Of a stretch of DNA of 64,000 nt, positions 13-50,967 are shown piece after piece. Source of the DNA: Verrucomicrobiota bacterium (lineage in GTDB: Bacteria > Verrucomicrobiota > Lentisphaeria > JABSQK01 > JAJFLO01); assembly GCA_021772615.1 (NCBI GenBank), contig JAJFLQ010000107.1, forward strand, positions 19,924-83,923, written 5' to 3'. The notes below the pieces were generated by a model. That model worked only from the letters and a program-made list of their open reading frames with translations, searched no databases and was not told the origin of the DNA. The stretch's first letter is position 1. Each line of letters begins with the position of its first letter. Both the position numbers and the translations under genes were made by a program.

Positions 13-687
13 TTAACCGACGAGATACAACAACGGAAACAGGTATATCCAGATGAGATCCACGAGATGCCAGTACAATCCGCCCATCTCCACAGGGATA
101 TAGTACTCGCTTGAATATGTTCCCTGGAGAGTACGAATTAGCACAAAGCCGAGAAATACCATTCCTCCAACAACATGTAGTCCGTGCAAACCGGTCATCG
201 CAAAATATATACTGAAGAAAATATGCGGGTTTGCGACGCCTTCCAGATGCGTATAGGCGAACAATTCGCCGGGAAGAATATGTGCATGGATCTTGTGGCT
301 GTACTCGAAATACTTGATCACCAGAAACGTAGCCGCGCACAGCAGTGTCACCACCAGGAACATGGCTGTCTGCTTCGGCCGGTCGAGCTGAATCGAGCGA
401 ATCGCCAATGCCGCCGTCACAGAGCTGAAAATCAATACGAGTGTATTGATTGCCCCTAGCTTGACATCGAGAAGCTGGTGCGCCTGCGTGAACATTTCTG
501 GGTTCCACGCACGATATATGGCGTAAAAACAAAATAACCCGCCGAATAACAACACCTCCGTGACCAGAAAAAGCCACACGCCCAATTTGATAGACTCGTG
601 CTGCTGCTCCATGTCATGAAAGTGATGTGCCAGCGCAGGATGCCCGCGGTGGTGCTCCTCGCCTGCTATTGCAACGACCTGTTCCAT
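13..687 (-). CDS. ctaE: cytochrome c oxidase subunit III
   Basis: 224-aa polytopic ORF with COX3-like motifs (HGLHVVGG, WHLVDLIWIYLF). It lies directly downstream of subunit I on the same strand. Confidence 0.9.
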   Translation of the reverse strand: MEQVVAIAGEEHHRGHPALAHHFHDMEQQHESIKLGVWLFLVTEVLLFGGLFCFYAIYRAWNPEMFTQAHQLLDVKLGAINTLVLIFSSVTAALAIRSIQLDRPKQTAMFLVVTLLCAATFLVIKYFEYSHKIHAHILPGELFAYTHLEGVANPHIFFSIYFAMTGLHGLHVVGGMVFLGFVLIRTLQGTYSSEYYIPVEMGGLYWHLVDLIWIYLFPLLYLVG

Positions 688-698
688 ATCAGTGTTAC

Positions 699-2321
699 CT
701 AAATGTTCTCAGGAAGAACTTTATCGTAGTCATACGGCCCATGCTTGAAAATGGGTTCTTCACGAAAGTTTTCTGTGGGTGGCGGCGATGACGTCGCCCA
801 TTCAAATGTGAGCCCGCCCCATGGATTGTTACTGGCAGCCTTGCCGTTGAATAACGAGGCTATCAGATACGTCGCGATGATCAGGAAACCAACGCCGAGA
901 ACCATGGCGCCATACGATGAAAAGCCATGATATCGTTCGAATAAATCTGTCTTGTACAATCCGCTGTAGTCATGATACCGCCGCGGCATACCTTGAGATC
1001 CCAGCATGAATTGATTGAAAAACGTCATATTAAATCCCAAAAAGATAAACACGAACGCAATGCGTCCCCAAAACTCGCTATACATCTTGCCGAAAATCTT
1101 GGGCCACCAATGGTGAATGCCACCGAGAAATGCAATAACCGTGCCGCCCATCATCACGTAGTGAAAGTGAGCGACGACGAAATACGTGTCGTGCAGGTGA
1201 ATATCCAGGCCAAGCGCACCCAGAAAGATGCCGGTAAGGCCGCCTATGGTAAACAGGATGAGGAAGGCCAGCGCATACAACATGGGTGTAGTCAGACAGA
1301 TCTGGCCCTTGTACAATGTGGTCATCCAGTTAAAAATCTTGATGCCGGTGGGTATCCCGATAAAAAAGGTAATGAAACTGAAAACCATCGACGAAAATTC
1401 GGACTGTCCGGATACGAACATGTGATGCCCCCAGACCAAAAATCCGAGCAGGGCGATCGCCACACTGGAGTAGGCTATCAGCTTGTAACCGAAGATCTTC
1501 TTGTGCGAGTGTACGGCAATCAGTTCGCTAATTATAGCCATACCCGGCAGAATCATGATATATACCGCAGGGTGCGAATAGAACCAGAAGAAATGCTGAA
1601 ACAGTACCGGATCCCCGCCCATTTCCGGGTTAAAGATGCCAATTCCAAGCGTTTTCTCAAGAATCAACAACAACAGCGTAATGCCCAGCACCGGCGTGGC
1701 CAATACCTGAATCACGGAGGTTGCGTACGTACCCCATACGAACAGCGGCATTTGATACCAGGTCATTCCCGGTGCACGCATCTTGTGAATCGTGACAACA
1801 AAGTTCAAGCCTGTGAATATGGATGAAAAGCCAAGTATGAAAACACCGAATGTCATCGAGATGACCGACGTACTTGATTGCGTACTGTATGGCGAGTAAA
1901 ACGTCCAGCCGGTATCGACCGCCCCGGTAACGACAGAAAACAGCGTGAATGCCGCACCGATCACATAGACATACCAGCTTGCAAGATTCAGCCTTGGGAA
2001 CGCCACATCTTTCGCACCAAGCATGAGCGGCAGACAGAAATTGCCCAACGTCGCGGGAATCGATGGGATAATGAACAGGAACACCATCACGGCGCCGTGA
2101 AGGGTAAAAAACTTGTTGTATGTGTCCTGATCCATGAATTGCTCGCCAGAACGCATCAGTTCCAGACGAATGGACAGGGCAAAGAAACCGCCCAGGCCGA
2201 AGGCGAGACAGATAAGAATCAGGTACATGATGCCGATACGCTTGTGATCAAGCGTAAACAGCCACGATGCCAAGCCTTTCGGGTGGGATAGAAAATTTTG
2301 ATCCGGTGGAGAAGAATGCAT
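699..2321 (-). CDS. ctaD: cytochrome c oxidase subunit I (heme-copper oxidase catalytic subunit)
   Basis: 540-aa ORF with hallmark HCO motifs ([31 protein letters not shown]) and 12 or more TM segments. Confidence 0.97.
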
Positions 2322-2337
2322 GGATGACGCCCTTGTG

Positions 2338-3267
2338 CTACTTCACGGTCTTGATGAAATTGATGATTGAATCCAATTCATCGGGACTCAATGTACCCTG
2401 GAATGTCGGCATGACCGGCTCGTACCCCTGGACAACTTTTGCCTTGGGTTCGAGGATCGATTCACGCAGATAATTCTCATCGACGCTGATTACATCGCCG
2501 TCGGACATGGTTTCCTGACGGCCTAAAATATTCTTGAATGTCGGACCGTTTCCGGGCGATCCGTCAAGGGTATGGCAGGTGTTGCAGCCATAGCGTTTGT
2601 AGAGGACGTCGCCAGTCGGCGTGACACTGTTCTCTTCGATCCATTTCCGGTATTCGGTGTCACTGCGCACCGATACCCGCGTTGTCATCACGGAATGTTG
2701 CTGGCCGCAATACTCCGTACAATACAAGTCATACTCGCCCTTGTGATCGGATTGGAACCACAAAGATGTATACCGATTCGGCACCACATCCATTTTTACC
2801 CTGAAATCGGGGATATACAGCGAATGCAGCACATCACGCGACGACATTAACAGCTTTATCGGTTTCCCATCCGGCACAACCAGGATATCACTCTTGGCGC
2901 CCTCGGGATATTCAAATATCCATTTCCACTGTTGGGCCGTAACGCGAACTTCCATCGCGTTCCCGGGTATCACAAAAAACTGCATGTATGCCCGGAAACC
3001 CCAAACAAAAATGACGAACATCAAGATCGTTGGAATGACGGACCAGAACAGTTCCAGCGGCGTATTATGGCAGAATCCGGATGTAAGCCTGAATGCCTCA
3101 CCCTTTTTCTTGCGAAACTTCACTGCAAAGACGATCGTCCCGACCGTGATCACCACAAAGAAAAAAACCGACAACCAGTAAATAAAGTAGAATAACTGGT
3201 CGTACATCGGCGCGAGCGTGGACGCTGCCGGCGGCAGATTAAATGTACCTTGCTGTTCCATAATCAA
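2338..3267 (-). CDS. ctaC: cytochrome c oxidase subunit II with C-terminal cytochrome c domain (caa3-type)
   Basis: Two N-terminal TM helices, a CuA site ([20 protein letters not shown]), and a C-terminal CNTCH heme c motif. Confidence 0.95.
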
Positions 3268-3273
3268 TCTGTA

Positions 3274-4104
3274 TCAAACGCTGACACATGCATTATTGCG
3301 ACGCTCACGCAGCCACAGGCCGGCGAGAAAAAATCCAAGAAACGTCACAGTTATCAATCCGCCGAGACGCATCACATTCATCGCCATCAGCGTATACTTC
3401 TTGCCCATTGGGTCGTAATGGTAACAAAAGAGAATCACCCGATCCATGAGCGAACCGATCTTCCCCTCTCCGGCCTCCAGCAAGGACAGACGCAGATCCT
3501 TGCTCCGGTAATCTATCCCGTACAAGTAACGCGATATCACGCCTTCCGGCGTCAACACGAAAACCACCGCTGGGTGCGCAAACTCGTCCTGCCTGGCGTC
3601 GTAATAATACTCGAAGCCTACAGATTCCGCCAGCGACGTGATTTCCGTCTGCCGCCCAACCCAGAATCGCCATCCATCGCCGATATCGCCTTTGTTGAGG
3701 CTATCGACATACACCTTTCGTTTTGCGGCTGCGAGCGCCGGTGTTTCTTCCGGATCAATGCTTACCGTGAGCATCTGGTACTCGTCGCCTGGCTGCCAGT
3801 CCAGTTCTGCGACCGCCTTCGACAACGCATTCAATACGAACGTACACAGCATCGGGCACTCGTAGTAAGCCAGCGTGAGAACAACCGGTTTACCTTGCAC
3901 AAAAACATCGCGCAACTCGACCTGCCTGCCGTTCTCGTCGGCAAAACGCAGATTCAACGGCACACTGCCGCCAAGCCGTTCCGACACATCAATCCCGCGA
4001 AGCTCGGGTACGTCCTCCCGCAGAAGTTGCGCCGAAATCGCAGGCCCCCACAACCATACGGTTGCCAGGACCAGCCGAATCAGCCTTTGTGAGGACCGTT
4101 GCAA
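3274..4104 (-). CDS. SCO1/SenC family copper chaperone
   Basis: Signal-anchor, a thioredoxin-like CPMLC (CxxxC) motif with a downstream conserved His, and a C-terminal TM helix. It sits immediately upstream of ctaC. Confidence 0.85.
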   Translation of the reverse strand: MQRSSQRLIRLVLATVWLWGPAISAQLLREDVPELRGIDVSERLGGSVPLNLRFADENGRQVELRDVFVQGKPVVLTLAYYECPMLCTFVLNALSKAVAELDWQPGDEYQMLTVSIDPEETPALAAAKRKVYVDSLNKGDIGDGWRFWVGRQTEITSLAESVGFEYYYDARQDEFAHPAVVFVLTPEGVISRYLYGIDYRSKDLRLSLLEAGEGKIGSLMDRVILFCYHYDPMGKKYTLMAMNVMRLGGLITVTFLGFFLAGLWLRERRNNACVSV

Positions 4105-4114
4105 TTCGGCACCG

Positions 4115-4474
4115 CTACGGTGCAGTGCCTTGCTGCTGAAATGCCTCCTCAGCGAGAATCGCCATTGCCCGGCTCACCGGGATCTGATAGATCCCTTTTT
4201 CCTTATCAATCACACCGTACCGATTCAACTGCTCTTCTTCGTAAGCCCGCAGCTCCGAGAGTGCAGGCGTCCCATAGTCATTTGCTTCGCGAATCAGCTG
4301 CTCCCGATAATACGAAAAGTAACTGTCAAGGCACACGACCGAGATGACGATCGTTATCACGCAAACAGCGGAAAAGGCGATCAAGATGGGGACATTGACA
4401 TCATGCAATTCGTAACCCGCAGTTACAGAATTCGGGTCGATCGAAACGTGTTGTTCGTGTGAATCACTGCTCAT
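4115..4474 (-). CDS. small single-pass membrane protein, unknown function (oxidase-operon associated)
   Basis: 119-aa ORF with one TM helix (ILIAFSAVCVITIVISVV). It is tightly packed between the ActF-like gene and SCO1. No family recognised. Confidence 0.55.
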   Translation of the reverse strand: MSSDSHEQHVSIDPNSVTAGYELHDVNVPILIAFSAVCVITIVISVVCLDSYFSYYREQLIREANDYGTPALSELRAYEEEQLNRYGVIDKEKGIYQIPVSRAMAILAEEAFQQQGTAP

Positions 4475-4488
4475 AAACCGCGAATGCC

Positions 4489-5688
4489 TTAGATATTCAC
4501 AAAATGTATCGACTCGCGCAATTTAGGATCGTTCACCGGAATGATCGGCTGTGCAGCGAATCGTTTTAGAAAACAGAAGATGAATATGCCGCCGATACCG
4601 ACAAATGTCGCGGCATCCATCCATGAAAAATGAAAATGATGCTTGTGCAGATTCGGACTAATCAACCAGTAAAGATCGATCCAGTGAACGGCCAGCATCC
4701 AGATACTCATGATTGTCATCATTCGCACGCTGCGTTTCGGCACCCGGCTGAGCAATACGGCGAAGGGAATCACAAAATGAGCGAAGACGAGCAACAGGCT
4801 GATCGTTTTCCAATTCCCCTCCCATCGATGCAGATACCACACGGTTTCCTCGGGAATATTGCCGTACCAGATAAGGAAGTATTGGGAAAACGCTATGTAC
4901 GTCCAGAACACGGTAAACGCGAAAATTAATTTTCCCAGATCGTGGAAATGCTCCACTGTAATTTCGTCTGTCAGGATCTGATTGGACTGAAGAAAGACGA
5001 TCCACAATGTCATGAACGCCAGCGCCGACAGCAGGCTTCCTGCAAAGAAGTACACGCCGAAAATAGTGGAATACCAGTGCGGATCCAGCGACATCATCCA
5101 ATCAAAAGCCGAAAAGGTAAGGGTCAACGCAAAAATGACCATACCCGGGCCACTGACCATCCGCATTCGGCCCAAGAGGCCTTCCTCATGCTTCTGGTCC
5201 TGCCTTAATGACGTCTTGTACAGGACCGCGCCGATCACCGTCCAGCAGACAAAATAGATAACCGATCGCCCGATAAACATGCCGGTATTCAACCAGGGAG
5301 CCTTATGCTGGAGCAATACGTCGTGGGCGACTGCGTCGGCATGGGACCAATGATAGAGATCATGAATACCATGCCCAACAATGGGAAGGAGAAAGATAAA
5401 CATGACCGGCAACGTGACCATGAGGCACTCGGACAAACGCCGAACAACGACGCTCCACGTCGCGTCGACGAGATGATGCACCATCGTAAAAAACAACGCG
5501 CCAAGGCCAACGGACGTCCAGAAGACATACGCCGTAAGATACGAGTGATAGAATTGTTTGCTGTCGGCGTTGAAGCCAACTGCCGACGCTGCCAGTCCCG
5601 CTATTCCTACAGCCAGCAGCAGCTTGCCGTAGATTCCCGTGTCCTGTATACGATAAGTCGATTTATCCCACTTCATAAGTTGCGGCAT
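4489..5688 (-). CDS. polytopic membrane protein, possibly ActF/NrfD-like (alternative complex III-type subunit)
   Basis: 399 aa with about 10 TM helices. The N-terminal pattern (FWTSVGLGALFFTMVHHLVDATWSVVVRRLSE) resembles ActC/ActF-type subunits from memory. No search was done. Confidence 0.55.
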   Translation of the reverse strand: MPQLMKWDKSTYRIQDTGIYGKLLLAVGIAGLAASAVGFNADSKQFYHSYLTAYVFWTSVGLGALFFTMVHHLVDATWSVVVRRLSECLMVTLPVMFIFLLPIVGHGIHDLYHWSHADAVAHDVLLQHKAPWLNTGMFIGRSVIYFVCWTVIGAVLYKTSLRQDQKHEEGLLGRMRMVSGPGMVIFALTLTFSAFDWMMSLDPHWYSTIFGVYFFAGSLLSALAFMTLWIVFLQSNQILTDEITVEHFHDLGKLIFAFTVFWTYIAFSQYFLIWYGNIPEETVWYLHRWEGNWKTISLLLVFAHFVIPFAVLLSRVPKRSVRMMTIMSIWMLAVHWIDLYWLISPNLHKHHFHFSWMDAATFVGIGGIFIFCFLKRFAAQPIIPVNDPKLRESIHFVNI

Positions 5689-6580
5689 GCTCCACGTCGT
5701 TTACCAGATCCATCTCCCAGAACGGCAGTAAATCTGCCGTAATGTAACGCCGTACTTCCAGAATCAATTCCGGCCATGACCACAGCCGGCCGAGCGCGTC
5801 GCGACAAAGGGTCTCTATTTGTTTACGGATATGCGACTCCGAGATTTGATCGCACTGGGCAAGGGTGTATTTCTTTTTCTTACTGTCTGTGCCAAGTGTC
5901 TTTCCTATTGCGGCTTCATCGCCAACAACGTCAAGCAGATCGTCCGCAAGCTGATACGCCGTACCCAGCAGGTATCCGACCTCACAGAGTTCCTTGCGTC
6001 TATTACTACTGTCTCCACCGCAACATTCGGCAACAAATGCAAAGAGCGGCCCGGTTTTTCCCCGTGCCACACGAATACACGTATCCACGTCAATCGCTTT
6101 GTCCTTCATCAGCATTTCGTGAATCATCTCGGTGGCACAAACCTCACGAACCTTGCTCACAAACGAAGCCACGGATGCCACGTCGCCACTTTCGACGACA
6201 AGCTGCACAGCGGTACTGAAGAAAAGGTCACCTACCAGAATGGCGCCGGTGGAACCCACTTCACGCCATAGTGTAGGATGTCGCCGGCGAACAACGGCAC
6301 CGTCAATAACATCATCATGAAACAATGTCGCCGCGTGAATCAACTCAGTTGCGGCGCAGGCCTTTATCAGCGCGTCTGTACTCGCGCCGTCCTGCTGCGC
6401 CAGGACCATACCCAGCCGTGTACGCAGCATCTTCCCAGGCGAAAACTGCCGCCGAAGCTGGCCTATTATATCCTGTCCCTCGAACCGTTTAATGTCGCCA
6501 TAAACCGTTTCCAAAACACGATTAATCTCAGCCACGGTCTCATCGACGAAGCCAATTTCACTGATTGAACAATCAAGCAT
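5663..6580 (-). CDS. polyprenyl diphosphate synthase (trans-isoprenyl diphosphate synthase family)
   Basis: First and second Asp-rich motifs are present (LFHDDVIDG and LADDLLD). The 305-aa length is typical of the family. Confidence 0.9.
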   Translation of the reverse strand: MLDCSISEIGFVDETVAEINRVLETVYGDIKRFEGQDIIGQLRRQFSPGKMLRTRLGMVLAQQDGASTDALIKACAATELIHAATLFHDDVIDGAVVRRRHPTLWREVGSTGAILVGDLFFSTAVQLVVESGDVASVASFVSKVREVCATEMIHEMLMKDKAIDVDTCIRVARGKTGPLFAFVAECCGGDSSNRRKELCEVGYLLGTAYQLADDLLDVVGDEAAIGKTLGTDSKKKKYTLAQCDQISESHIRKQIETLCRDALGRLWSWPELILEVRRYITADLLPFWEMDLVNDVEHAATYEVG

Positions 6581-6850: not shown

Positions 6851-6894
6851 AAATAAAAAAAAGCATGTTCCCGGCTGTGCTGCCGGGAACATGC
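6851..6894 (-). terminator. rho-independent terminator
   Basis: Perfect 12-13 bp GC-rich stem (GCATGTTCCCGG / CCGGGAACATGC) with a 6-8 nt loop. On the minus strand it is followed by TTTTTTTTATTT. It lies about 95 nt downstream of the stop of the 6989-8161 gene. Confidence 0.8.
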
Positions 6895-6988: not shown

Positions 6989-8161
6989 TTAGCTGTCGAC
7001 CTTTTCAATGACCCGGTCCAGGAGTTCCCGCGTCCAGGCGCCGACAAAACGGTAACGTAGCTTGGACCGCGGATTTTCCAGCAACGGCTTGAGAATGGTG
7101 TTAAAATCGAAGGCTGGCCACTCTGATGCCGGCGGCACATCGTCATCTACATTGGCCGTCACGCCAACGATGTGCGCACCTGAAAGGTGTGCGCCGACAA
7201 GGTAGAGCACTTCGTAGAGCGGTTGCCCGACAAAGGGATCGGCGATAACTTCGATCCGGTGATCCAGACTGTCGCAGAAAATTAGCGAGGCCAGCGGACC
7301 GATGATGTTGATGTCGCTGAAGCTACAGGCGCCGAGTGCCGACTTCGCGAGTGCAAGGCGTCGCGGCGCCTTGCAACTCGGAATCGCCATGATTGTACCC
7401 TTGATCTCGGTCGTGTTCCCGACGCGCGCAATATTGGGCTTCCCGTCAAGATCACGCTGCTGCCGGATCTCGCCAGTGTGGATGTCGGCATAAAACAAAC
7501 GAACGCCGTCAGGCGAAATGGTCCACACGGCGTCGGTCTGAAAATCCACGACGCAGCCAAACTCGATCTCGTATTGGCGATTGCCCGGCGTGGACGACGC
7601 CGACTCGCCGGCGATCCAGGCTGCGTTATTGATACACCTGGGATAGCCCCAGTCCCATGGATCAGAATTGTCGACAGGGTCCGTGCCGGCAACCTTGAAC
7701 GGCGCCTTGCCGTGTTCCACCCATTCCTTAAACTCTTCGTCGAATCCCTTGATCCCCGACACATGACCGGGACCGATGATCTCCTCGTTAAAAACTTTGA
7801 TCAATCCGTGGCCGCCGACGTAATCGTAAACAAAAGACGTGTCATTAAGGTTCTTGGCGTCGATCTTTGCTCCCAATTCGCGGCGCAGCTTGGTTTGATT
7901 ACGTTGATACGGATCAAAAAAGTCGCGCACCGCAATACCGTTCAAAGCAAACGCCTGGTGGACAGGGTCTTTGCTTACTACCGATAAATCATACCTCTTT
8001 TTGGTTTCGGCGATTTTGGCATCGATCTGCCCGGTCCAGTCGCCGAGTACTTCTTCGTGAGTTTTCAAGAGACCTCCTTTGTGTGTGATAATTGCGTTAG
8101 TTTTATGGAGAGCGGTAAAAAGGCGGGGAATGTACACAGCAAAACGCGATACGTCAACCAC
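6989..8161 (-). CDS. conserved-looking soluble protein, function unknown (last gene of the MglAB-divergent operon)
   Basis: 390-aa ORF with no TM segments and globular, enzyme-like composition. It is followed by a strong terminator. I could not assign a family by eye. Confidence 0.7.
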   Translation of the reverse strand: MVDVSRFAVYIPRLFTALHKTNAIITHKGGLLKTHEEVLGDWTGQIDAKIAETKKRYDLSVVSKDPVHQAFALNGIAVRDFFDPYQRNQTKLRRELGAKIDAKNLNDTSFVYDYVGGHGLIKVFNEEIIGPGHVSGIKGFDEEFKEWVEHGKAPFKVAGTDPVDNSDPWDWGYPRCINNAAWIAGESASSTPGNRQYEIEFGCVVDFQTDAVWTISPDGVRLFYADIHTGEIRQQRDLDGKPNIARVGNTTEIKGTIMAIPSCKAPRRLALAKSALGACSFSDINIIGPLASLIFCDSLDHRIEVIADPFVGQPLYEVLYLVGAHLSGAHIVGVTANVDDDVPPASEWPAFDFNTILKPLLENPRSKLRYRFVGAWTRELLDRVIEKVDS

Positions 8162-8197
8162 GGGAAAGATAAATATCGTTGAATATCTCCGACGCCG

Positions 8198-8560
8198 TCA
8201 GGAACGCTCGACGTGAAGATATCGCCGACATTTCTGGTAAAACGCTTCGCCTTTTTCAGTCACGGTTCCGGATTCGAGAATAGACTGGACGTGCGTCAGG
8301 ATATGGCCGTGAAATTGACGGCGAAATACTGTCGCCACATCCTTGAGGATCTGGTCGTCGGAACGCAACATGCCGCGCTCCATATTATGAAATGCTTCAT
8401 CAAGAAATTTCTCTGCCTGACGCTCTGTAAGCCCATGGTCCTCCAGGCAAACTATGGCACGATTATTGGTCGAGGCGCTGATGAAAGAATCTGACTTCAT
8501 CGCCAGCACGAATAATTCCGCCAGACGCTTGTACTTCTTGCGGTCCGTTAAAGCCGCCAT
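8198..8560 (-). CDS. small helical protein, unknown function
   Basis: 120-aa ORF lying 27 nt downstream of the 650-aa gene. Its start codon is directly preceded by an A8G9 tract (minus strand). Confidence 0.6.
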   Translation of the reverse strand: MAALTDRKKYKRLAELFVLAMKSDSFISASTNNRAIVCLEDHGLTERQAEKFLDEAFHNMERGMLRSDDQILKDVATVFRRQFHGHILTHVQSILESGTVTEKGEAFYQKCRRYLHVERS

Positions 8561-8577
8561 CCCCCCCCCTTTTTTTT
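8561..8577. repeat. C9T8 homopolymer pair (G9 preceded by A8 on the coding strand) abutting the start codon of the 8198-8560 gene
   Basis: Read directly: ccccccccc tttttttt at 8561-8577. On the minus strand this reads AAAAAAAAGGGGGGGGG-ATG. Confidence 0.95.
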
Positions 8578-8587
8578 CGCGTCAGCG

Positions 8588-10540
8588 TTATCCGATTACT
8601 GCGCGATACGCGCAGTACCATACTAATTCATTGGCAAGCTTCCGACACGCCTTCAATTGCTTCTGATTGGGAAAGTCGACGCCATGAATGCAGACAACAA
8701 ATATCTGGTCCGAACCCGCGAATGTCACAGAATTCTTACCAATATAAAACGTGAACATGTCAGCGGGCGGCAACTGGCTTTGTTTCAGGGCCTTGTGACC
8801 ACGCTTGTAGAGTTGCGGCGCCGCGGCGGAAAGACTGTCGGAGAGCTTGAGAGCCTTGTCGTCTTTCGCCCCCTTCGCCAACACCAGGCCGTCAATGCTG
8901 CTGATAAACATCGCGTCGAGACGAAACGAATCCAGAGCAATCTGCGTGACTTTGTTGAGCGAGACAGTGTCTGAATTGATGCTCAACATCCTGTTCACCT
9001 GCAATTCTGCCGTCCTGATATCAGCACGCGGCTTCAATCGGGCCATGGTCTGATACGTACGGGAACCCAACCCCGTGATCTTCAGCAGATCCTGCAGACG
9101 GTTGAAACGGCCGTGCTTTTCACGGTAATTTATGATCACTTTCGCCAGATGCTCGCCAACGCCGGTCAACAGGCACAACTCGTCGATTCCACCGCGATTT
9201 ACATCAATTCCATTCGGGGCGCGACTACGCCATTCGATGACATCTTCCAAGCCGCTCATAGCGGGTTCATCATCTTTAATGGTACGGTCCTGGGCCGACA
9301 AGTCGGGGGCGAACACGTCATGGGCGGCCTGCCGAATTTCCTGAACCAGGTTGCCGTCATCAGCCGGCTCCGCTGCGCGCGGCGCAGAGAGTGCTACGGC
9401 CGGACGCGGTTTAGGTTGTTCCAACTCGGCCGGTGCAACGGGCGACGGCGCAACAGCAGCGACTGGCACGGCGGGGGCGGCAACAGGTACAGGCGGTGGC
9501 GGTACTGGTGCTGCCGGGGCAACCGGTACAGGAGGTGGCGGTGCTGGCGCTGCCGGGGCAACCGGTTCAGGAGGCGGCGCCGGTTCAGGAACCGGCGCCG
9601 GCGCGGCGACAGGAACGGCGCGCGGCGGCGCTACCGGAGGCTGAACAACCGGCGTCGACGGCGCGAATGCAGACGAAATGACGGGCTCATCAGCCTCCAT
9701 TGGCTCTTCGTCAGGCATCATTGGCGTTTGCATAATCGCGGCCTCCGGCGTCGCGGCCAGGGGCGGTGACGGGGCAATCTCTACCGGCTCCTCTACCGGT
9801 GTTGCCTCCATCGCCGGCGTATGATCTTCGTCGGCAACAGGTACAGGTTCGTCTTCGGTCATTGCAGACGCAGGCAGATCCGGGAAAAGGTCTTCCATTT
9901 CGGCAACCATCTCCTCCTGCGAACAGTCTTGCGCACGAGTCTCAAACCATGCCGGGGGCACGTGCGGCAAGAGCTCCATCAACGGCAACTCGACCTTCTG
10001 ATCGTAAAACAAGGTCACGTTTTCCTGAAATATATTAAACGGCAATTTGTTGACGAGTTCGCCAATCTTGATCTCTACCTGGCCGATAGACAGGCCGTAC
10101 ATCACTTCGGATTTTTCAAACGGAAAGACAAAATCCTCATGATTGCTGTAGCCTGAGATGATTTCGTCCACCGTGGCATTAAGGAGTTCCGCAGGGAACA
10201 CTGCCAGGATAGCCCCGGCTGGAACGTATATTGTGTTCACATCCGCTGGCGGCGCATACTCCGGCTCAGCTTCAACGGCAACCTCCTCGGCAACGGCATC
10301 ACCGGAGAAATAGTCGTCCATTGGATCGCCGTCGTCGTCATCATCGCCTATGATTGAGTTGATCTCGGCCAGCTTCGATATGATGTCCTCCGGATTCTCG
10401 ACCGATTCAGCCTCATAATCGGGCTCCATGTCGACCGTGTGGCCGGCTATGACCGGCGCCTCCGCCGCCTCCGGAACTTCCGGCTCCATTTCGGGCTTGT
10501 CCTTCTTTCCGAAAATTCCGAATATACCTTTTTTAAACAT
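8588..10540 (-). CDS. multidomain protein: acidic N-terminus, Pro/Ala-rich linker, ComEA-like helix-hairpin-helix domain, C-terminal Roadblock/LC7-like domain
   Basis: The HhH segment (IDVNRGGIDELCLLTGVGEHLAKVIINYREKHGRFNRLQDLLKITGLG) matches the ComEA HhH pattern. The C-terminal ~110 aa (FISSIDGLVLAKG...IFVVCIHG) fits the Roadblock/MglB pattern. The gene is divergent from mglA. Confidence 0.8.
   Translation of the reverse strand: MFKKGIFGIFGKKDKPEMEPEVPEAAEAPVIAGHTVDMEPDYEAESVENPEDIISKLAEINSIIGDDDDDGDPMDDYFSGDAVAEEVAVEAEPEYAPPADVNTIYVPAGAILAVFPAELLNATVDEIISGYSNHEDFVFPFEKSEVMYGLSIGQVEIKIGELVNKLPFNIFQENVTLFYDQKVELPLMELLPHVPPAWFETRAQDCSQEEMVAEMEDLFPDLPASAMTEDEPVPVADEDHTPAMEATPVEEPVEIAPSPPLAATPEAAIMQTPMMPDEEPMEADEPVISSAFAPSTPVVQPPVAPPRAVPVAAPAPVPEPAPPPEPVAPAAPAPPPPVPVAPAAPVPPPPVPVAAPAVPVAAVAPSPVAPAELEQPKPRPAVALSAPRAAEPADDGNLVQEIRQAAHDVFAPDLSAQDRTIKDDEPAMSGLEDVIEWRSRAPNGIDVNRGGIDELCLLTGVGEHLAKVIINYREKHGRFNRLQDLLKITGLGSRTYQTMARLKPRADIRTAELQVNRMLSINSDTVSLNKVTQIALDSFRLDAMFISSIDGLVLAKGAKDDKALKLSDSLSAAAPQLYKRGHKALKQSQLPPADMFTFYIGKNSVTFAGSDQIFVVCIHGVDFPNQKQLKACRKLANELVWYCAYRAVIG
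9486..9580. repeat. in-frame 39-bp tandem repeat (2 full copies plus a degenerate third) encoding a PVPVAPAAP(A/V)PPP linker
   Basis: Units at 9486-9524 and 9525-9563 differ at 3 of 39 positions. A degenerate continuation runs to about 9580. Confidence 0.85.
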
Positions 10541-10941
10541 GTCAAATCCTTTGCCTGTAGCTACTTGGATCCGGGCCGCTCGACGGAATTGGTGGGGTAA
10601 TGTGCAGACCTGGACTGGGAATGAATATAAATGACCTTAAAATAATAGTCAATTTGTTCTGTTTTCTCTTGCAAAAACAATTTAGACTTCTAAGCTTGAT
10701 ATTGAAAGTATAGAATTTAAGATTTGCCTGTTGCTAAAGTATTTAAAGCCTGAACCGGAGCTGAGTTTCCTCACGCATAGATAGTACCAATCCTGGAATC
10801 AACGAGTACGATACGGACAACAACCTAACGCCGTTCCGCACGCGGCGCGGCCAGGCGGCGATGCCTGAATCTGCTCGCACGCACTGTTCGCCCGAAAATC
10901 CGGTCGCCCTCAAGAATCCCTACTAACCATACCCTGATGCC

Positions 10942-11535
10942 ATGGCTGTCGTAAACTACGCGAAGAAAGAGATTCAATTCAAGATCGTCTACTACGGTTG
11001 CGGATTGTGCGGCAAAACCACCAATCTTCAGAAGGTCCATGCCTGTGTACCTGCCAAGGCAAAAGGAAACCTGACGTCGCTGGCCACTAGTCAGGACCGA
11101 ACCTTGTTCTTCGACTTTCTACCGCTTCAAACGATGTCAATCGAAGGGTTTGTGACCAAATTTCAGATGTACACAGTGCCCGGACAGGTCAAATATAACA
11201 GTACACGTCGGCTCGTGCTTCGAAATTGCGACGGCGTTGTGTTTTGTGTCGACTCTCAGGTAAGCAAAACTCAGGAGAATCTCGAAAGTTGGGAAAATCT
11301 CAAGGAGAATTTGAGTTTACAGAAAGACATTCTGGACGAAATGCCGCATGTCCTCCAATACAACAAACGTGACCTTCCTAACATCAGCCCGCAGGCATAT
11401 CTGGACTATGTATTGAACAACGGCGAGAAACGGATTCCGACGTTCATGGCTTCCGCCTTTAAGGGAGAAGGTGTGATCGAGACCCTAAACGCAGTCGCCA
11501 AACTGGTTCTACAGGACTTTATCGAGAAGCATTAA
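10942..11535 (+). CDS. mglA: MglA-family Ras-like small GTPase (mutual gliding motility protein A type)
   Basis: Full-length collinearity with Myxococcus MglA. Shared motifs: KIVYYGCGLCGKTTNL P-loop, TLFFDFLP, the MglA-specific YTVPGQV switch II, and NKRD. Confidence 0.95.
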   Translation: MAVVNYAKKEIQFKIVYYGCGLCGKTTNLQKVHACVPAKAKGNLTSLATSQDRTLFFDFLPLQTMSIEGFVTKFQMYTVPGQVKYNSTRRLVLRNCDGVVFCVDSQVSKTQENLESWENLKENLSLQKDILDEMPHVLQYNKRDLPNISPQAYLDYVLNNGEKRIPTFMASAFKGEGVIETLNAVAKLVLQDFIEKH

Positions 11536-11657
11536 GCGTTTGGATTTGTGGATTTTGTCCTGAATTTTCTACTGCAGGGGAGTGCAGTAGTATTCCGCTC
11601 CATAGATTACGCGAGCGGCACTAACGGCAACGTATTGAAATAGGATTCACCGGCCCT

Positions 11658-12128
11658 ATGGGGTTCATGCTCAAAGACCTGGAGTACGGTCAGCTAAAAC
11701 AGGATCTGGACGAGTTTCTAACCAATTCCGAGGCTCAGACTGTACTTCTGTGTGATCGCGGCGGTAATGTCATCGTAAGCAGTGGTGAAGCATTTATCGA
11801 CACTATCGACATGATCTCGGCGCTGGTCGCCGGTGCGTTCGCCGCCACGAAAGAATTAGCCGGCATACTCGGAGAGAACGAATTTACGGCAATTTTCCAT
11901 CAAGGCGCCAAGATCAGCATTTTCATTTCGGCCGTGGGTGAAGAGGTGATACTGCTGGCTATTTTCACCGACGAAACCAATGCTGGTTTGGTCAAAATGT
12001 ATGCCCTCACAACATGCCGCAAATTCAGCAATCTGTTTAAAGACATTATGTCTCGAAAACAGATCAAAATCGACGATCCCACCCAGTCATTTCAACTCGC
12101 CAAGGGACCGATCTTCCAGGAAGATTAG
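11658..12128 (+). CDS. mglB: MglB-like Roadblock/LC7 domain protein (putative MglA GAP)
   Basis: 156 aa, directly downstream of mglA. Roadblock pattern present (VLLCDRGGNVIVSSG ... ISALVAGAFAATKEL ... LLAIFTDETNAGLV). Confidence 0.85.
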   Translation: MGFMLKDLEYGQLKQDLDEFLTNSEAQTVLLCDRGGNVIVSSGEAFIDTIDMISALVAGAFAATKELAGILGENEFTAIFHQGAKISIFISAVGEEVILLAIFTDETNAGLVKMYALTTCRKFSNLFKDIMSRKQIKIDDPTQSFQLAKGPIFQED

Positions 12129-20125: not shown

Positions 20126-21514
20126 TTAGCGTGCCGAGGCCCCCAGCGTTCGGCTCGGATCAGCGGCATAGCGAAGTATCCGCTTCAAGTTTCGCTTCAG
20201 CAACGGTGTAACGTCGAGCCCGGCCGCGATGGTATTTAGCGGTAATGCATGCGCTATGGACTGTAGTTCCACCAGGGTTTTTGCCCGAATAATGTCCATC
20301 AGAAACACAGGTTCCGCAGCATACGCTTCGGCGAAGGCTTCGACCGAAAGCTGGTCATCGGTCAAAAACCGCGAGATAGATATACGACCGCCATCATCCT
20401 CTGTCCATCCCCAACCGGCCAATAATCCTTCGATTCGGCTTATGTCGTCCTCCTCGATTCGCGAGGCATCACGAAGCACCCGGCTCAACTCACGCATCAA
20501 CCGCTCGCGTGGTCGCAGTTCCCGCACGGCTGCACGCCCTTGATCCAGGTTGTGTCTCGCCAGTGTGTCTGCAAACGCAGCGCGAGAGAGACATCCTCGC
20601 ATGTACGCCAGTGTTGCGTCGGGAGAACCAGCAAAACAAAGCGTCGCAAGGGCGCTTTGCACAGGATATTGCACGGTGCCCGACATTGCCCTACGCATGC
20701 GTTTGCTGCCGATCCGCGCGGCAAAGTGCGCGGCCCAAAGTTCTGCGACAACCTCGTTGAATCCCTCCCACCAGATATTTTCCAGCAAATTACGGATTCC
20801 CGGCGGCGGTAACAGGTGGTGCCAGATTTCGTGCTCCACGGTATCCCAAAACACAATCGGTGATGCTAAAAGGGCATTCATGTTCACCAGAATGGCATGA
20901 TGGTCGGCCACATATACCGCGGCAGTCGTGTGGTACCCGTCCCGGTTAAAGTGGCGTAGCCGAAACCGCAGCGGCTGCAGCAAACGCGTTGTGACCCCCG
21001 ACAACCCATGGCACGGATCCGCCAACGGCCGCAGTATAGTCCCGTCTCGCCCCGGCGACAGCACAGCAGCAACCGACGCGGGAAAATGCTCCGTGAATTG
21101 GTTGAGGTACGCTTGTGTTTCGCGGATGAACCGAAGCCGCCTCCGATAGGACAGCGCCAGAAAGTCACGGCCTGCCATCAATTGTCGATAGGCCCGGTAA
21201 TTTTCACGGTCCGAGCGCGGCGTAGTGTCGTCGAGTGTGACTTCCCCCCCGTTGTCCGCCAGCCACCTGTCCAACTCGCGCTGACGCTTCAACGTGGCGT
21301 CACGTGCGACTCTGTTCTCCTTTTTGGTCAGTGGGTCAATCTCGGCTGCACGGTACAGCAGCGTGATCATCTCGCGGCTCACACCGCTAGCAAAAACAAC
21401 GGCCGCGTCGTCAAACGCGTTGGCGCCGACGTTGGTCGCAATAAGCACGGCAATGACAACAAGCCGACCGGCCGACCGGTGTCTTTGCGCGGCAAAAAAC
21501 AGCCCTGGCTTCAT
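20126..21514 (-). CDS. membrane-anchored protein with HExxH motif (putative zinc metallopeptidase-like), unknown family
   Basis: N-terminal TM and a single HEIWHH motif. Start chosen at the ATG at 21514, which forms an ATGA overlap with the upstream stop; the track start is 21538. Confidence 0.6.
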   Translation of the reverse strand: MKPGLFFAAQRHRSAGRLVVIAVLIATNVGANAFDDAAVVFASGVSREMITLLYRAAEIDPLTKKENRVARDATLKRQRELDRWLADNGGEVTLDDTTPRSDRENYRAYRQLMAGRDFLALSYRRRLRFIRETQAYLNQFTEHFPASVAAVLSPGRDGTILRPLADPCHGLSGVTTRLLQPLRFRLRHFNRDGYHTTAAVYVADHHAILVNMNALLASPIVFWDTVEHEIWHHLLPPPGIRNLLENIWWEGFNEVVAELWAAHFAARIGSKRMRRAMSGTVQYPVQSALATLCFAGSPDATLAYMRGCLSRAAFADTLARHNLDQGRAAVRELRPRERLMRELSRVLRDASRIEEDDISRIEGLLAGWGWTEDDGGRISISRFLTDDQLSVEAFAEAYAAEPVFLMDIIRAKTLVELQSIAHALPLNTIAAGLDVTPLLKRNLKRILRYAADPSRTLGASAR

Positions 21515-22077
21515 TCCGCGTAAACCCGATTGTCCCACACTTCAATAAGCGACCCCGTTCCGTCATCCCCGATCTTAATGTGGAGATTACGTTTTACCGA
21601 CGGGTTGATGTCCTGGGCGTATATCAAGATGACATAAGGGCTGCGCACCTCATCGGCGTAGTCCCCGCCGACAACCGGAATCGACCATTGCCACAACGAC
21701 GCGACAATGTCTTCTTTCGAAAAACGATGGTCGCGCTGCATCAGCAATTTTTCCAGATGCGATGAAGGTAGCTCCATCTTGCCGCCCCAAATGTCGAGCG
21801 CGTCGAGACGCTTACGACACCAGTTGTTCACTGCTGTTCGGCCCTCGGTGGTTCGAAAGCGGTAGTAGCGGCACGGCTGAACATAGTTCAGCCAGATTTG
21901 CGACTGCTCGCGGGTCCACTCCTCCTTATGCGGAATATCGGCCGGAATACGGAGGTACTTTATGCCCGCAGGTATGCACAACACGCAGAGGCCAACCGCG
22001 ATAATTACCACGGAATAATTCAGCTTTGAATGTTTAAATCGTAATCTCATTGTCGTATCATACATCCACGTAAACAT
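21511..22077 (-). CDS. membrane-anchored hypothetical protein
   Basis: 188 aa with an N-terminal TM helix. It is translationally coupled (ATGA) to the HExxH gene. No family recognised. Confidence 0.55.
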   Translation of the reverse strand: MFTWMYDTTMRLRFKHSKLNYSVVIIAVGLCVLCIPAGIKYLRIPADIPHKEEWTREQSQIWLNYVQPCRYYRFRTTEGRTAVNNWCRKRLDALDIWGGKMELPSSHLEKLLMQRDHRFSKEDIVASLWQWSIPVVGGDYADEVRSPYVILIYAQDINPSVKRNLHIKIGDDGTGSLIEVWDNRVYAE

Positions 22078-43708: not shown

Positions 43709-44320
43709 ATGGCGTCACGCACGTCAAGGCGAAAATTTACGCTGATAGAATTGCTTGTGGTCATAGCGATTATCGGCATACTGGCAGCAATGTTGTTGCC
43801 GGCACTGAGTCGCGCTCGCGAGAAAGCCAAACGCATAAACTGCATTGGCAACCTCAAACAGATCGGGCTTGCACTGGGCTCTTACACGATTGACCAGTTC
43901 AACTGGTTTCCGGCAGCAGACACCACCAATTATCCCGCTGATTCAACAATTCTGAGCTTGCTTGTTCAGGAAAACTACCTGTCTACATCGGAGATATACC
44001 ACTGCCCCAGCAACGACACGCAGGTGGAAATCGTCAATCATCCCACTCCGACCGACAAGAAGTATATCCAGAATATGTCGTATACGTATATCGGCGACCA
44101 TACGTCGTTCCAAAACGTCGATGACCCGTCCGATCCTGACGGTCTTACGGAAACCGACACCGGCGCAGAGACCTCGATGATCGGCGATCGGCAGGAGAAT
44201 CACGACAGCATCGGACACATTCTCTTCAGCGGCGGTTACGTGTTTGCGATTCCTGGCGAGAGCTGGTTTACCGACGACCAGGTGAATATAGAGCTGCGCG
44301 AACTCATCGAAAGTCCCTGA
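43709..44320 (+). CDS. prepilin-type N-terminal cleavage/methylation domain protein (pseudopilin-like)
   Basis: Class III signal ([25 protein letters not shown]) and a C-terminal H-X9-DG-like tail (HILFSGGYV region). Confidence 0.85.
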
Positions 44321-44550
44321 CGCGAGTGCTCTCGCATGGTAGCGCCCCGCCTTCCCACGTACACCGGCAACAACACATGAATCATTCAGGGTAGCGGCCT
44401 GTTGTCCCCGGCCCTCTTCTGGAAACACCCCACGCAGACCCGCAACGGCATTGGAACCTACCCGCCTTGCTCTTGTCCTATCCTGTTCACATCCAGGATG
44501 TGAGCCACCACAGAGAAACCAGGGATCCAGAATACGGAAGGACTGTTGCC

Positions 44551-45573
44551 ATGAATCACGAAGACATCCAGGAATTACAGAATCAGATAAAGGCGGCTTC
44601 GTCGTTTGTTCAAACACTGAAAATAGAAGTTGGCCGATTCATCGTTGGTCAGGACCAGCTTATCAATCGCCTGCTCATCGGTCTTGTGGCCAACGGCCAC
44701 GTACTGGTAGAAGGTGTGCCCGGTTTGGCGAAAACAATGGCGATAAATATACTGTCACAGGCGACCGGCTGTGAGTTTTCCCGCATTCAGTTCACGCCGG
44801 ATCTACTGCCGGCCGATGTCGTTGGAACCACAATATACAACCCGCGCGAGCACACATTCTCGATTAAGAAAGGACCAGTCTTTGCCAATCTCATATTGGC
44901 AGACGAAATCAACCGCGCACCGGCAAAGGTGCAAAGCGCCCTGCTTGAGGCCATGCAGGAACGCCAGGTTACAATCGGCGGAGATACCATTCCCCTGCCG
45001 ACGCCGTTTCTGGTGATGGCCACGCAGAATCCGATGGAGCAGGAAGGAACCTACCCATTGCCGGAGGCGCAGGTCGATCGATTCATGCTCAAACTCGAAC
45101 TCGACTACCCGTCGCGCGAGGAGGAACGCGTCATCCTCGAGCGCATGGCACACCCGGATTATAGCGCGGTTGCCACGGGAGTCGTGACGACGGAAGAGAT
45201 ACTGGCATCTCGAAAATGGGTCGACAAGGTGTACCTCGACGAGAAAATCATGGAATATATACTCGACATCGTGTTTGCAACACGGAGCGAAAAACGCGAC
45301 CAACTCTCGGCGCGCCAGCATGACGCGAGACTGGATGAATTCGCGGACCTCATACAATACGGCGCATCCCCGCGCGCAACAATCAGCCTCGCCATTGCCG
45401 CCAAGGCCGTAGCGTTTCTCGAGGGGCGTGCGTATGTTGTGCCGCAGGATGTCAAAGAGATTTGCCCGGATGTACTGCGACATCGAATCGTGCCGACATA
45501 CGAGGCGGAAGCCGAGAATCTCACAACATCGGATCTCATCCGTAAGTTGCTCGACGAGCTAAGGACCCCTTGA
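44551..45573 (+). CDS. MoxR-family AAA+ ATPase
   Basis: Walker A GVPGLAKT, Walker B ILADEINRA, and FLVMATQNP. ATG at 44551 is preceded by GGAAGGA. Confidence 0.95.
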   Translation: MNHEDIQELQNQIKAASSFVQTLKIEVGRFIVGQDQLINRLLIGLVANGHVLVEGVPGLAKTMAINILSQATGCEFSRIQFTPDLLPADVVGTTIYNPREHTFSIKKGPVFANLILADEINRAPAKVQSALLEAMQERQVTIGGDTIPLPTPFLVMATQNPMEQEGTYPLPEAQVDRFMLKLELDYPSREEERVILERMAHPDYSAVATGVVTTEEILASRKWVDKVYLDEKIMEYILDIVFATRSEKRDQLSARQHDARLDEFADLIQYGASPRATISLAIAAKAVAFLEGRAYVVPQDVKEICPDVLRHRIVPTYEAEAENLTTSDLIRKLLDELRTP

Positions 45574-45606
45574 CAAGGGCCGCAATCATACAGCGCCGAT
45601 AACGTC

Positions 45607-46488
45607 ATGCTTACCAAAGAATTACTTTCAAAAGTCAGAAAGATTGAGATTCGCACGCGACGCATTGTCGACGAACTCACGGGCGGCGCGTATCACAGTG
45701 TGTTCAAGGGCAAGGGCATGGAATTCGATGAAGTCAGGGAGTACATCCCCGGTGACGATGTGCGATCTATCGACTGGAATGTCACGGCCCGAACCGGCCA
45801 GCCGCACGTAAAGAAGTTCGTCGAAGAGCGCGAGTTAATCGTGTTCCTGGTTGTGGACATTTCCGGTTCCGGTGACTTCGGAAGCGCGCAGCAGCAGAAA
45901 AACGAACTCGCGGCGGAACTCGCGGCGGTGGTCGCATTCAATGCCATACGGAACAATGACCAAGTAGGCCTGCTGCTGTTTTCCAGTCGGGATGAATTGC
46001 ACTTACCGCCACGCAAAGGGCGCGGCCATGTGTTGCGGTTGGTTCGCGAACTGTTGGCGCACGAACGCCAGGACAAGGGCACGGACATCGGCATGGCACT
46101 CGAAACCTTCATGAAGGTGTCGAACCGAAAAACCGTGATGTTCCTGATCAGCGATTTCATCGATCAGGGTTTTCAACGGGCACTGACGATTGCAAACAAG
46201 AAGCATGACCTTATCGCCATTCGAATCACCGATCCCCGTGAACGCGCAATCCCCGCAATTGGTTATCTCAGCGTGGAAGATGCTGAATCCGGAGAATCAC
46301 TTACCTTTCCGACGCATGTTGCCCGCAGTCGCCGGCTGTTTGCCGCCGGCAGCCAGGAAGCCCATGATGCGTTCCTCGACGATTGCAGACGTGCGGGTGT
46401 GGATCTTATCGACATTCGAAACGGAGAGGATTACATCAAACCGTTCATGCAATTTTTCCGTACTCGGGAAAAACGGAAACGACGGTAA
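45607..46488 (+). CDS. DUF58 family protein (vWA-like, MoxR partner)
   Basis: Pattern EVREYIPGDDVRSIDWNVTART. Standard position after moxR. Confidence 0.9.
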   Translation: MLTKELLSKVRKIEIRTRRIVDELTGGAYHSVFKGKGMEFDEVREYIPGDDVRSIDWNVTARTGQPHVKKFVEERELIVFLVVDISGSGDFGSAQQQKNELAAELAAVVAFNAIRNNDQVGLLLFSSRDELHLPPRKGRGHVLRLVRELLAHERQDKGTDIGMALETFMKVSNRKTVMFLISDFIDQGFQRALTIANKKHDLIAIRITDPRERAIPAIGYLSVEDAESGESLTFPTHVARSRRLFAAGSQEAHDAFLDDCRRAGVDLIDIRNGEDYIKPFMQFFRTREKRKRR

Positions 46489-46493
46489 GGCCC

Positions 46494-47495: not shown

Positions 47496-47497
47496 AC

Positions 47498-48565: not shown

Positions 48566-48569
48566 CCTG

Positions 48570-50933: not shown

Positions 50934-50967
50934 CACAGATTTTTTCCCGCAAACTTACGGAGAACCG

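Follow-up and report, generated by a model that had tools for sequence, protein, structure and literature searches.

Experimental work on the Ras-like GTPase MglA and its Roadblock partner MglB has, to our knowledge, centred on Myxococcus, Bdellovibrio and Thermus, and we know of little on how they are wired in other bacteria. Together with SgmX, MglA reportedly stimulates the formation of type IV pili. Further components include MglC, a single-domain protein that is not known to be encoded beside mglBA, RomR, in which folded end domains are joined by a long, disordered Pro-rich linker, and the small cofactor RomX. In Myxococcus xanthus, MglC is a Roadblock paralogue of MglB (PMC10329633, PMC4719450) and docks on MglB within the RomR/MglC/MglB complex (PMC10329633), and an MglB/RomY co-GTPase-activating protein (co-GAP) has been described in Myxococcus (PMC9481161). 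More generally, Roadblock domains serve as platforms for GTPases: the Ragulator (LAMTOR) pairs, which carry the Rag GTPases, place a small GTPase at a defined site via a separate anchor (PMC3747258). We analysed mglA, mglB and the genes that face them at positions 6989-12128 of a 64,000-nucleotide stretch (the window) of the Verrucomicrobiota contig JAJFLQ010000107.1, where a gene divergent from mglA encodes a 650-aa protein combining a helix-hairpin-helix (HhH) domain with a C-terminal domain predicted to have the Roadblock fold.

This HhH-Roadblock protein, or scaffold, resembles MglC in being a second Roadblock-fold protein tied to MglA/MglB and remote in sequence from MglB. Unlike MglC, it is a large fusion (526-1004 aa across the family) that comprises an (HhH)2 domain, a Pro-rich tether and one or two copies of an N-terminal domain (N-domain), and it is encoded beside mglAB. 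By analogy, MglC, with its docking on MglB and its bridging to another scaffold, would be the likeliest model for the C-terminal domain. Ragulator/LAMTOR and Rag C-terminal pairs (5yk3, 1veu, 6ehr) are also among the significant structural matches of this domain, but they are eukaryotic, are anchored by lipidated LAMTOR1 and lack HhH motifs. A likeness also links the scaffold to RomR/RomX and RomY, the accessory factors that shape MglA output in Myxococcus (PMC9481161, PMC13408092), in particular to the linker architecture of RomR, and it differs from them by the absence of detected sequence similarity and of a receiver domain. We propose, with a probability of about 0.5, that the scaffold serves MglA/MglB as a Roadblock adaptor resembling MglC or Ragulator.

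The MglAB pair and the domains of the 650-aa protein

Both mglA and mglB are genuine, in keeping with the strong calls made for them in the original prediction. MglA contains the predicted P-loop GCGLCGKTT (residues 19-27) and switch II TVPGQ (residues 78-82, T78 and Q82 in M. xanthus numbering), together with the guanine-specificity motif NKRD (residues 141-144) and an Arg finger, R53, within DRTLFFD; the replacement of the switch II Asp of DxxGQ by Thr78 is presented as an MglA feature in PMC3000849. The protein is 53% identical to M. xanthus MglA, matches PDB entry 6hjh over residues 1-192 (E=9e-60) and Thermus MglA 3t12 over its full length (E=6e-56), and shows 74-92% identity among Lentisphaeria-type relatives. 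The Roadblock-type mglB predicted to follow it starts 122 nt downstream of mglA, and its product matches Pfam Robl_LC7 above the cut-off (41 bits versus 23, E=1.6e-10) as well as M. xanthus MglB 6h5b_B (E=1e-18). On the NCBIfam model for Thermus-type MglB (NF052242) it scores 81.9 bits, under the equivalog cut-off of 200; it is an MglB homologue and not an equivalog of this narrow model.

The sequence evidence on the C-terminal domain of the scaffold is no more than suggestive: Pfam Robl_LC7 (PF03259) is matched by four of ten family members (best E=3.4e-7), the protein P0011 has a weak precomputed match to it, and the top match in a PDB profile search was the Robl_LC7 protein 7f8f (E=0.008). 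The identity of the domain was settled by structure. The AlphaFold2 model of residues 436-650 has a predicted local distance difference test score (pLDDT) of 83.3 overall and of 88-94 in the Roadblock domain, and the modelled topology, H-E-E-H-E-E-E-H, is the alpha-beta-beta-alpha-beta-beta-beta-alpha order of the Roadblock fold. When compared with the PDB using Foldseek, the model gave 59 matches at E<=1e-3, with M. xanthus MglB chains at ranks 1-17 (E from 5e-6 to 4e-5, target-normalised template modelling (TM) score 0.65-0.72), followed by Asgard Roadblocks, Thermus MglB, LAMTOR/p14-MP1 and Rag C-terminal domains. The best 50 of the 59 matches comprise MglB, Asgard and other Roadblock proteins, LAMTOR/p14-MP1, Rag C-terminal domains, GATOR1/folliculin complexes containing these, and dynein complexes; MglC is absent among them. 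As modelled, the C-terminus of the 650-aa protein is a Roadblock fold closest to MglB, and the HhH/Roadblock-like fusion seen in the original prediction, which had allowed that the C-terminus might lack such a fold, is borne out.

The likeness to MglB (6hjm, 6h5b, 3t1r) extends to the order of the secondary structure elements and to a D-G turn after beta1, which in the scaffold family reads D-G-L and lies between beta1 and beta2. The other family signature is A-P-Q-L-[YF]-[KR]-[RK] in helix alpha2, where APQL[YF][KR] forms the most conserved patch of the modelled Roadblock domain. Helix alpha2 is what we take to be the site of the MglB residues needed for contact with MglA. The strong conservation of this patch, the ranking of MglB ahead of Asgard Roadblocks and LAMTOR among the structural matches, and the position of the scaffold gene directly before mglA in some of the loci described below would also suit a second direct regulator of MglA, i.e. 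an alternative GAP, an exchange factor for guanine nucleotides (GEF) or a sink resembling a guanine nucleotide dissociation inhibitor (GDI). Such a regulator would be a homodimeric MglB-like platform that binds MglA without MglB and uses DNA or the nucleoid as a holding or switching surface. We regard a direct regulator of this kind as doubtful. Indeed, the scaffold domain shares only 10-13% identity with MglB in structural alignments, without a profile-profile match, and its alpha2 motif, AAVAPQLYKR, is unlike the AGAFAATKELA of MglB. Furthermore, a bona fide mglB already lies beside mglA, here and in all 21 loci in which mglAB accompanies the HhH-Roadblock gene, so that no replacement is needed.

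The adaptor that we favour would reach beyond the switch through its other domains. From the N-terminus, the 650-aa protein consists of a basic-aromatic peptide (MFKKGIFGIFGKK), a disordered acidic stretch that contains one short helix, the N-domain, a Pro/Ala-rich linker, the (HhH)2 domain and the Roadblock domain. This order of elements is kept in the twelve homologues that were aligned, and the order N-domain, (HhH)2, Roadblock is constant in all full-length members of the family, six of which carry two N-domains in tandem. The N-domain is modelled with a pLDDT of 90-95 as an alpha/beta domain. Sequence searches with it found nothing in Pfam or the PDB, and Foldseek found no match (best E=6.8 against the PDB and 1.0 against BFVD); its predicted fold is thus unmatched in these two structure libraries. 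The linker (26% Pro, 21% Ala, with a GC content of up to 72.7%) ranges from 100 to 400 aa among homologues, which cannot be aligned in this part. No transmembrane segment is present in the 650-aa protein, the maximal 19-residue Kyte-Doolittle hydropathy (1.53) lying inside the linker, and neither an export signal nor an N-terminal membrane anchor was seen by hydropathy, no dedicated signal-peptide predictor having been run.

The (HhH)2 domain provides the only Pfam match of the protein (HHH_3, residues 443-500, 55.3 bits for a cut-off of 27). It is of the ComEA type, as indicated by its match to ComEA 8dss_A (E=3e-9; see also 8dfk) and by the conservation of the GVG and GLG hairpins, with scores on the ComEA-family models that stay under the cut-offs (43.0 versus 53.1 for TIGR00426 and 43.1 versus 152.35 for TIGR01259). 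Note that at one locus (L022), from a metagenome-assembled genome, the HhH-Roadblock gene is broken into two open reading frames (7858-9837 and 9887-10204), which a frameshift, pseudogenization or misassembly could explain.

Linkage of the HhH-Roadblock gene to mglAB

Loci for comparison were gathered by context look-ups, by a scan of species-representative genomes, by look-ups of the family of the 120-aa protein encoded next to the scaffold (an independent start) and by a metagenome scan. All of them were scored by tblastn and profile searches, and the 23 with enough flanking DNA were considered assessable. The mglAB genes are adjacent to the HhH-Roadblock gene in 21 of these 23, in two gene orders, which establishes the tie between them in related genomes. 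Seventeen loci, Lentisphaeria-type ones and a remote metagenomic one (L036, 26% identity), have the divergent layout of the window, with mglA and mglB reading away from the HhH-Roadblock gene. In the other four, which are remote (L010, L024, L025 and L037, 22-26% identity), the genes are co-directional in the order TPR-MshEN, PilB-type ATPase, HhH-Roadblock, mglA, mglB. The identity of the PilB/MshE-type ATPase in this set was verified (T2SSE, E=3e-144, plus MshEN), its stop codon overlaps the start of the HhH-Roadblock gene by 4 nt in L024, and genes for TadE, TadG-vWA and ExeA-like AAA proteins lie nearby in L024 and L025, the loci scanned. The co-directional arrangement thus embeds MglAB in a cluster of type IV filament genes in remote Verrucomicrobiota-type genomes. 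Overall, the HhH-Roadblock proteins of mglAB-linked loci are 22-50% identical. Going by the names of the records, the family belongs to Lentisphaeria/Lentisphaerales and has remote members among Kiritimatiellae and Verrucomicrobiia.

The neighbourhood of PilB/MshE-type ATPase and Tad-pseudopilin genes in the four remote loci, taken with the ComEA-type HHH_3 domain, raises the question of whether the protein is a ComEA-like DNA-handling part of a system for type IV filaments or competence, linked to MglAB only indirectly through the shared pilus machine, with a Roadblock domain that merely receives regulatory input. This is unlikely. ComEA is periplasmic or membrane-anchored, whereas the scaffold has neither a secretion signal nor an anchor as judged by hydropathy and is fused to a Roadblock domain, which, like MglA and MglB, is cytoplasmic. 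Its scores fall short of the ComEA TIGRFAM cut-offs, and no pilus genes lie beside the module in the 17 divergent loci, the window included.

A functional link between the scaffold and MglAB is argued, above all, from the fact that the pair persists while the flanking genes, the orientation and 75% of the residues of the partner change. Inherited synteny without any functional link, with the scaffold working in an unrelated process, could be invoked given that most linked loci belong to one class (Lentisphaeria), in which the polyprenyl synthase and COX cluster flanks are syntenic as well, and that two loci lack mglAB nearby. It is nevertheless improbable: the flanks on both sides vary from locus to locus while the mglAB/HhH-Roadblock pair stays, remote lineages, at 22-26% identity, retain the pair with a different orientation and surroundings, and the partner has the same fold as the known MglA regulator. 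The survival of the linkage through such divergence of the partner and through a change of gene order argues for selection, rather than inherited synteny, as its basis.

Neighbouring genes and the divergent control region

The five open reading frames of the original prediction were confirmed in position, and the features of the region are collected in Table 1. None of the five proteins had a match in PADLOC or PHROGs, and a defence-system or phage origin was dropped, both searches being empty.

Table 1. Positions of the genes, domains and sites discussed, in window coordinates unless a compared locus (L number) is named
Feature	Position	Strand	Description
mglA	10942-11535	+	Ras-like GTPase, MglA family, 197 aa
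mglB	11658-12128	+	Roadblock/LC7 protein, cognate partner of MglA, 156 aa
Divergent intergenic control region	10541-10941		401 bp, AT-rich, promoter-like sites on both strands
HhH-Roadblock scaffold gene	8588-10540	-	650 aa
N-domain	9917-10249	-	aa ~98-208, predicted alpha/beta domain
Pro/Ala-rich linker	9236-9880	-	aa 221-435, hypervariable
(HhH)2 domain, ComEA type	9023-9217	-	aa ~442-506
C-terminal Roadblock domain (as modelled)	8591-9013	-	aa ~510-650
120-aa gene	8198-8560	-	27 nt downstream of the HhH-Roadblock gene; no known family
Orphan 359-aa gene	6989-8068	-	listed reading frame 6989-8161 over-extended
Intrinsic terminator closing the 359-aa gene	6863-6894	-	13-bp stem with 9 G-C pairs, 6-nt loop, T-run tail; TTTTTTTTAT
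Two tandem N-domains	L019 9989-10996; L020 9971-11098; L024 8849-9703; L025 8681-9495; L026 4303-5211; L030 1694-2857
Co-directional modules	L024 6021-13637; L025 5828-13759; L010 1349-6805; L037 248-6204
Homologues of the 359-aa gene	L001 10001-11083; L002 10001-11089; L004 5824-6909; L007 3472-4554
471-480-aa gene convergent with mglB	L006 4536-5963; L007 5043-6485; L008 4661-6076

The conserved unit beside mglAB is made of two genes, not of the three that had been predicted to form an accessory complex in a single operon: the HhH-Roadblock gene stood up to the comparison, the 120-aa gene is absent from roughly half of the Lentisphaeria-type loci, and the third gene drops out. The 120-aa gene lies directly downstream of the HhH-Roadblock gene and on the same strand in 13 loci, and it is missing from every remote locus. 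Its product evolves fast (about 0.4 nonsynonymous substitutions per nonsynonymous site, dN) and has no match in Pfam, NCBIfam or the PDB; a likeness to PDE4D was rejected, the PDB matches being insignificant (E>=0.16). The family comprises 38 clusters of 55-134 aa, none of them with a Pfam domain, and the clusters for which names are given are hypothetical proteins of Lentisphaerae/Lentisphaeria bacteria and of one unclassified bacterium. The 120-aa protein is a lineage-restricted partner, found in one subclade, and by analogy with RomX it might be a small cofactor.

The third gene had been taken to encode 390 aa. Its homologues, all 360-362 aa long, begin to align at codon 32, which is a TTG at 8068 with its own Shine-Dalgarno sequence (AAAGGAGG) in front, so the gene actually specifies 359 aa. 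Between it and the 120-aa gene lie 129 nt with a -35/-10 match (TTGACG-17-TACATT, 8157-8129), which makes a three-gene operon unlikely; of the predicted operon closed by a strong terminator, the terminator (6894-6863) is real, and the 359-aa gene is probably a transcription unit of its own.

The genomic position of the 359-aa gene differs in every genome, and it lies near the module in two of five, at different places. Its neighbours are DUF3261 and tRNA methyltransferase genes in L001, CofD and UbiA genes in L002, and SSF transporter and GH3 genes in L004; L001 and L006 belong to one 8.78-Mb contig, on which the 359-aa homologue and mglAB are about 2 Mb apart. In L007, the homologue is found about 2.5 kb beyond mglB, on the other side from its position in the window. 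Conversely, the slot after the 120-aa gene is occupied in relatives by a Metallophos gene (L006, L007), by a kinase and then a Metallophos gene (L027), by convergent genes (L026, L028), and elsewhere by radical SAM or other genes; no Metallophos remnant or pseudogene was found in the window. The 359-aa gene is therefore adjacent to the conserved module and not part of it, and the concern that the three genes might lack conserved linkage to mglAB applies to this gene alone, that of the 650-aa gene being kept. An accessory complex of the 650-, 120- and 359-aa proteins, for which the shared strand, the single strong terminator and the L007 homologue close to mglB could be adduced, is highly improbable in view of these unrelated contexts, of the otherwise filled third slot, of the displaced homologue in L007 and of the gene's own translation signal, gap and promoter-like site.

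The occupants of this slot show some variety of their own. In L027, the Ser/Thr kinase gene (precomputed Pfam Pkinase) and the Metallophos phosphoesterase gene extend over 7384-11078, downstream of the module; the window has neither. A similar layout is seen in L016 (4707-8345), with a Metallophos homologue (51% identity by tblastn) after a 919-aa gene whose product has a Cys-rich N-terminus.

The 359-aa protein itself is 83-87% identical to four relatives when compared codon by codon, while synonymous sites are saturated (proportion of synonymous differences, pS, 0.83-0.97); its dN of 0.09-0.13 is near that of MglA (0.06-0.09), and about 100 alignment columns are invariant. Purifying selection on the protein is very strong. 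Because the synonymous sites are saturated, recent horizontal transfer was rejected as an explanation for this conservation. Nothing resembling the protein was found in Pfam, NCBIfam, the PDB, PHROGs or PADLOC, and its family amounts to only two clusters at 50% identity among 1.84e9 representative proteins, one of which is a 38%-identical protein of 333 aa (P0057).

As for the region between the divergent genes, the AT-rich control region of about 400 bp that had been predicted is indeed 401 bp long, with a GC content of 46.9% against 54.4% for the window and 39.6% in the 260 bp closest to the HhH-Roadblock gene. Matches to promoter consensus, which are consensus matches only, lie on the minus strand (TTGACT-17-TATATT, 10652-10624) and on the plus strand (TTGATA-16-TAAGAT, 10696-10723). 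Between them, at 10667-10676, is a 10-nt box, TCTTGCAAAA, of the form TCTTG(T/C)AAAA, which is the sole intergenic stretch common to the window, L006 and L007, the rest of the alignment being poorly conserved. Sequences of the promoter and terminator types are no commoner here than in shuffled sequence (6 versus 4.9 and 10 versus 7.7 matches, respectively), and only the 13-bp terminator stands out. No Rfam family was matched anywhere in the window, the intergenic region included; a riboswitch or leader in this region was rejected on that ground and because conservation is confined to the 10-nt box.

Farther out, the window flank at 13-6580 (minus strand) is syntenic with relatives and comprises a polyprenyl synthase gene, a gene for a membrane protein of 397-399 aa, and then SCO1, COX2, COX1 and COX3. 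Of these, direct matches in the window were made for the polyprenyl synthase and the 399-aa gene alone, and the SCO1/COX calls come from gene order and sizes in L006 and L007. The conserved membrane-protein gene (4489-5688) has no Pfam match. On the other side, the window encodes at 20126-21538 (minus strand) a 470-aa protein without a Pfam match that is 34% identical (E=4e-76) to the product of a 471-480-aa gene convergent with mglB in three relatives. In the window, about 8 kb lie between the 470-aa gene and mglB, with genes for an FtsX/MacB-type protein of 1105 aa, a CHASE-domain protein of 451 aa, an ABC ATPase and a GT4 glycosyltransferase; the 470-aa gene may thus count as one more neighbour with a loose link to the module. 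A Bat-type cluster (MoxR AAA, DUF58, vWA and BatD-TPR genes) is present at 44467-53544 (plus strand), with a DUF1559/N-methyl pseudopilin-like gene at 43709-44320.

A proposed role for the scaffold

In the scheme that we favour, the conserved unit would consist of mglA-mglB and a divergent two-gene operon encoding the scaffold and, in one subclade, the 120-aa protein. The scaffold would act as a cytoplasmic multi-domain adaptor of the MglA/MglB switch: we infer that its C-terminal MglB-like domain, by analogy with MglC and the Ragulator pairs, binds MglB, MglA or both, that its (HhH)2 domain contacts DNA without sequence specificity and that its N-domain, held at the far end of the long and flexible Pro-rich tether, reaches a further partner. 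Among the Verrucomicrobiota-type relatives, this partner would probably be the type IV pilus motor encoded immediately upstream, for which the ATPase or the MshEN protein are plausible candidates. The net effect would be to set where or when MglB acts on MglA-GTP, and hence the site at which an envelope machine, for example type IV pili, assembles.

Several observations weigh against this scheme. The 650-aa protein of the window has no Pfam Roadblock match, and the relationship in sequence of its C-terminus to MglB is accordingly remote; hhalign found nothing when the alignment of the domain was compared with that of MglB (probability 0.65%, with shallow alignments, Neff 2.8). HhH domains can mediate protein contacts too. 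Membrane targeting or anchoring by an N-terminal helix was considered and is unsupported, the hydrophobic moment being about 0.2 and the helix not clearly amphipathic. As to genomic context, two Lentisphaeria-type loci (L019 and L020) encode the scaffold but have no mglAB in the roughly 9.5 kb upstream or in the available downstream flank (about 3 kb in L019 and 10 kb in L020), and the window lacks genes for a type IV pilus motor around the module.

The 2014 survey of prokaryotic Ras-like GTPases, in which most MglA groups had no conserved neighbours, describes the gene surroundings of groups 1, 4 and 5 as ones that "vary widely", notes only PATAN-domain genes in them, and mentions neither Lentisphaerae nor an HhH fusion (PMC4316618). 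Literature keyword searches combining Roadblock or MglB with ComEA or helix-hairpin-helix found no paper on such a protein among those listed. We regard the scaffold as a putative accessory Roadblock protein for the MglAB switch, new both in its multi-domain form and in its lineage and apparently undescribed, as had been predicted for an accessory component of this locus. A bolder and much more tentative extension, to which we give little weight, is that the family constitutes a hitherto undescribed class of MglAB cofactors, spread across the superphylum of Planctomycetes, Verrucomicrobia and Chlamydiae (PVC) from Lentisphaeria to Verrucomicrobiia, that physically couples a Ras-like GTPase to DNA, with either the nucleoid serving as a polarity matrix or cytoplasmic DNA handling being linked to a pilus motor. 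Such a class would act through an N-domain of unmatched fold, the 120-aa protein being in that case a new small cofactor on a par with RomX or RomY.

The HhH-Roadblock protein provides a concrete and conserved candidate for an MglAB cofactor in the PVC superphylum. Its domain logic is testable, with the Roadblock domain for the switch, the HhH domain for DNA and the N-domain for a further partner. The order PilB-type ATPase, scaffold, mglA in Verrucomicrobiota-type relatives supports type IV filament control as a widespread output of MglAB, and the scaffold would add a bacterial case to the reuse of Roadblock domains as GTPase platforms, comparable to that of Ragulator and the Rag GTPases.

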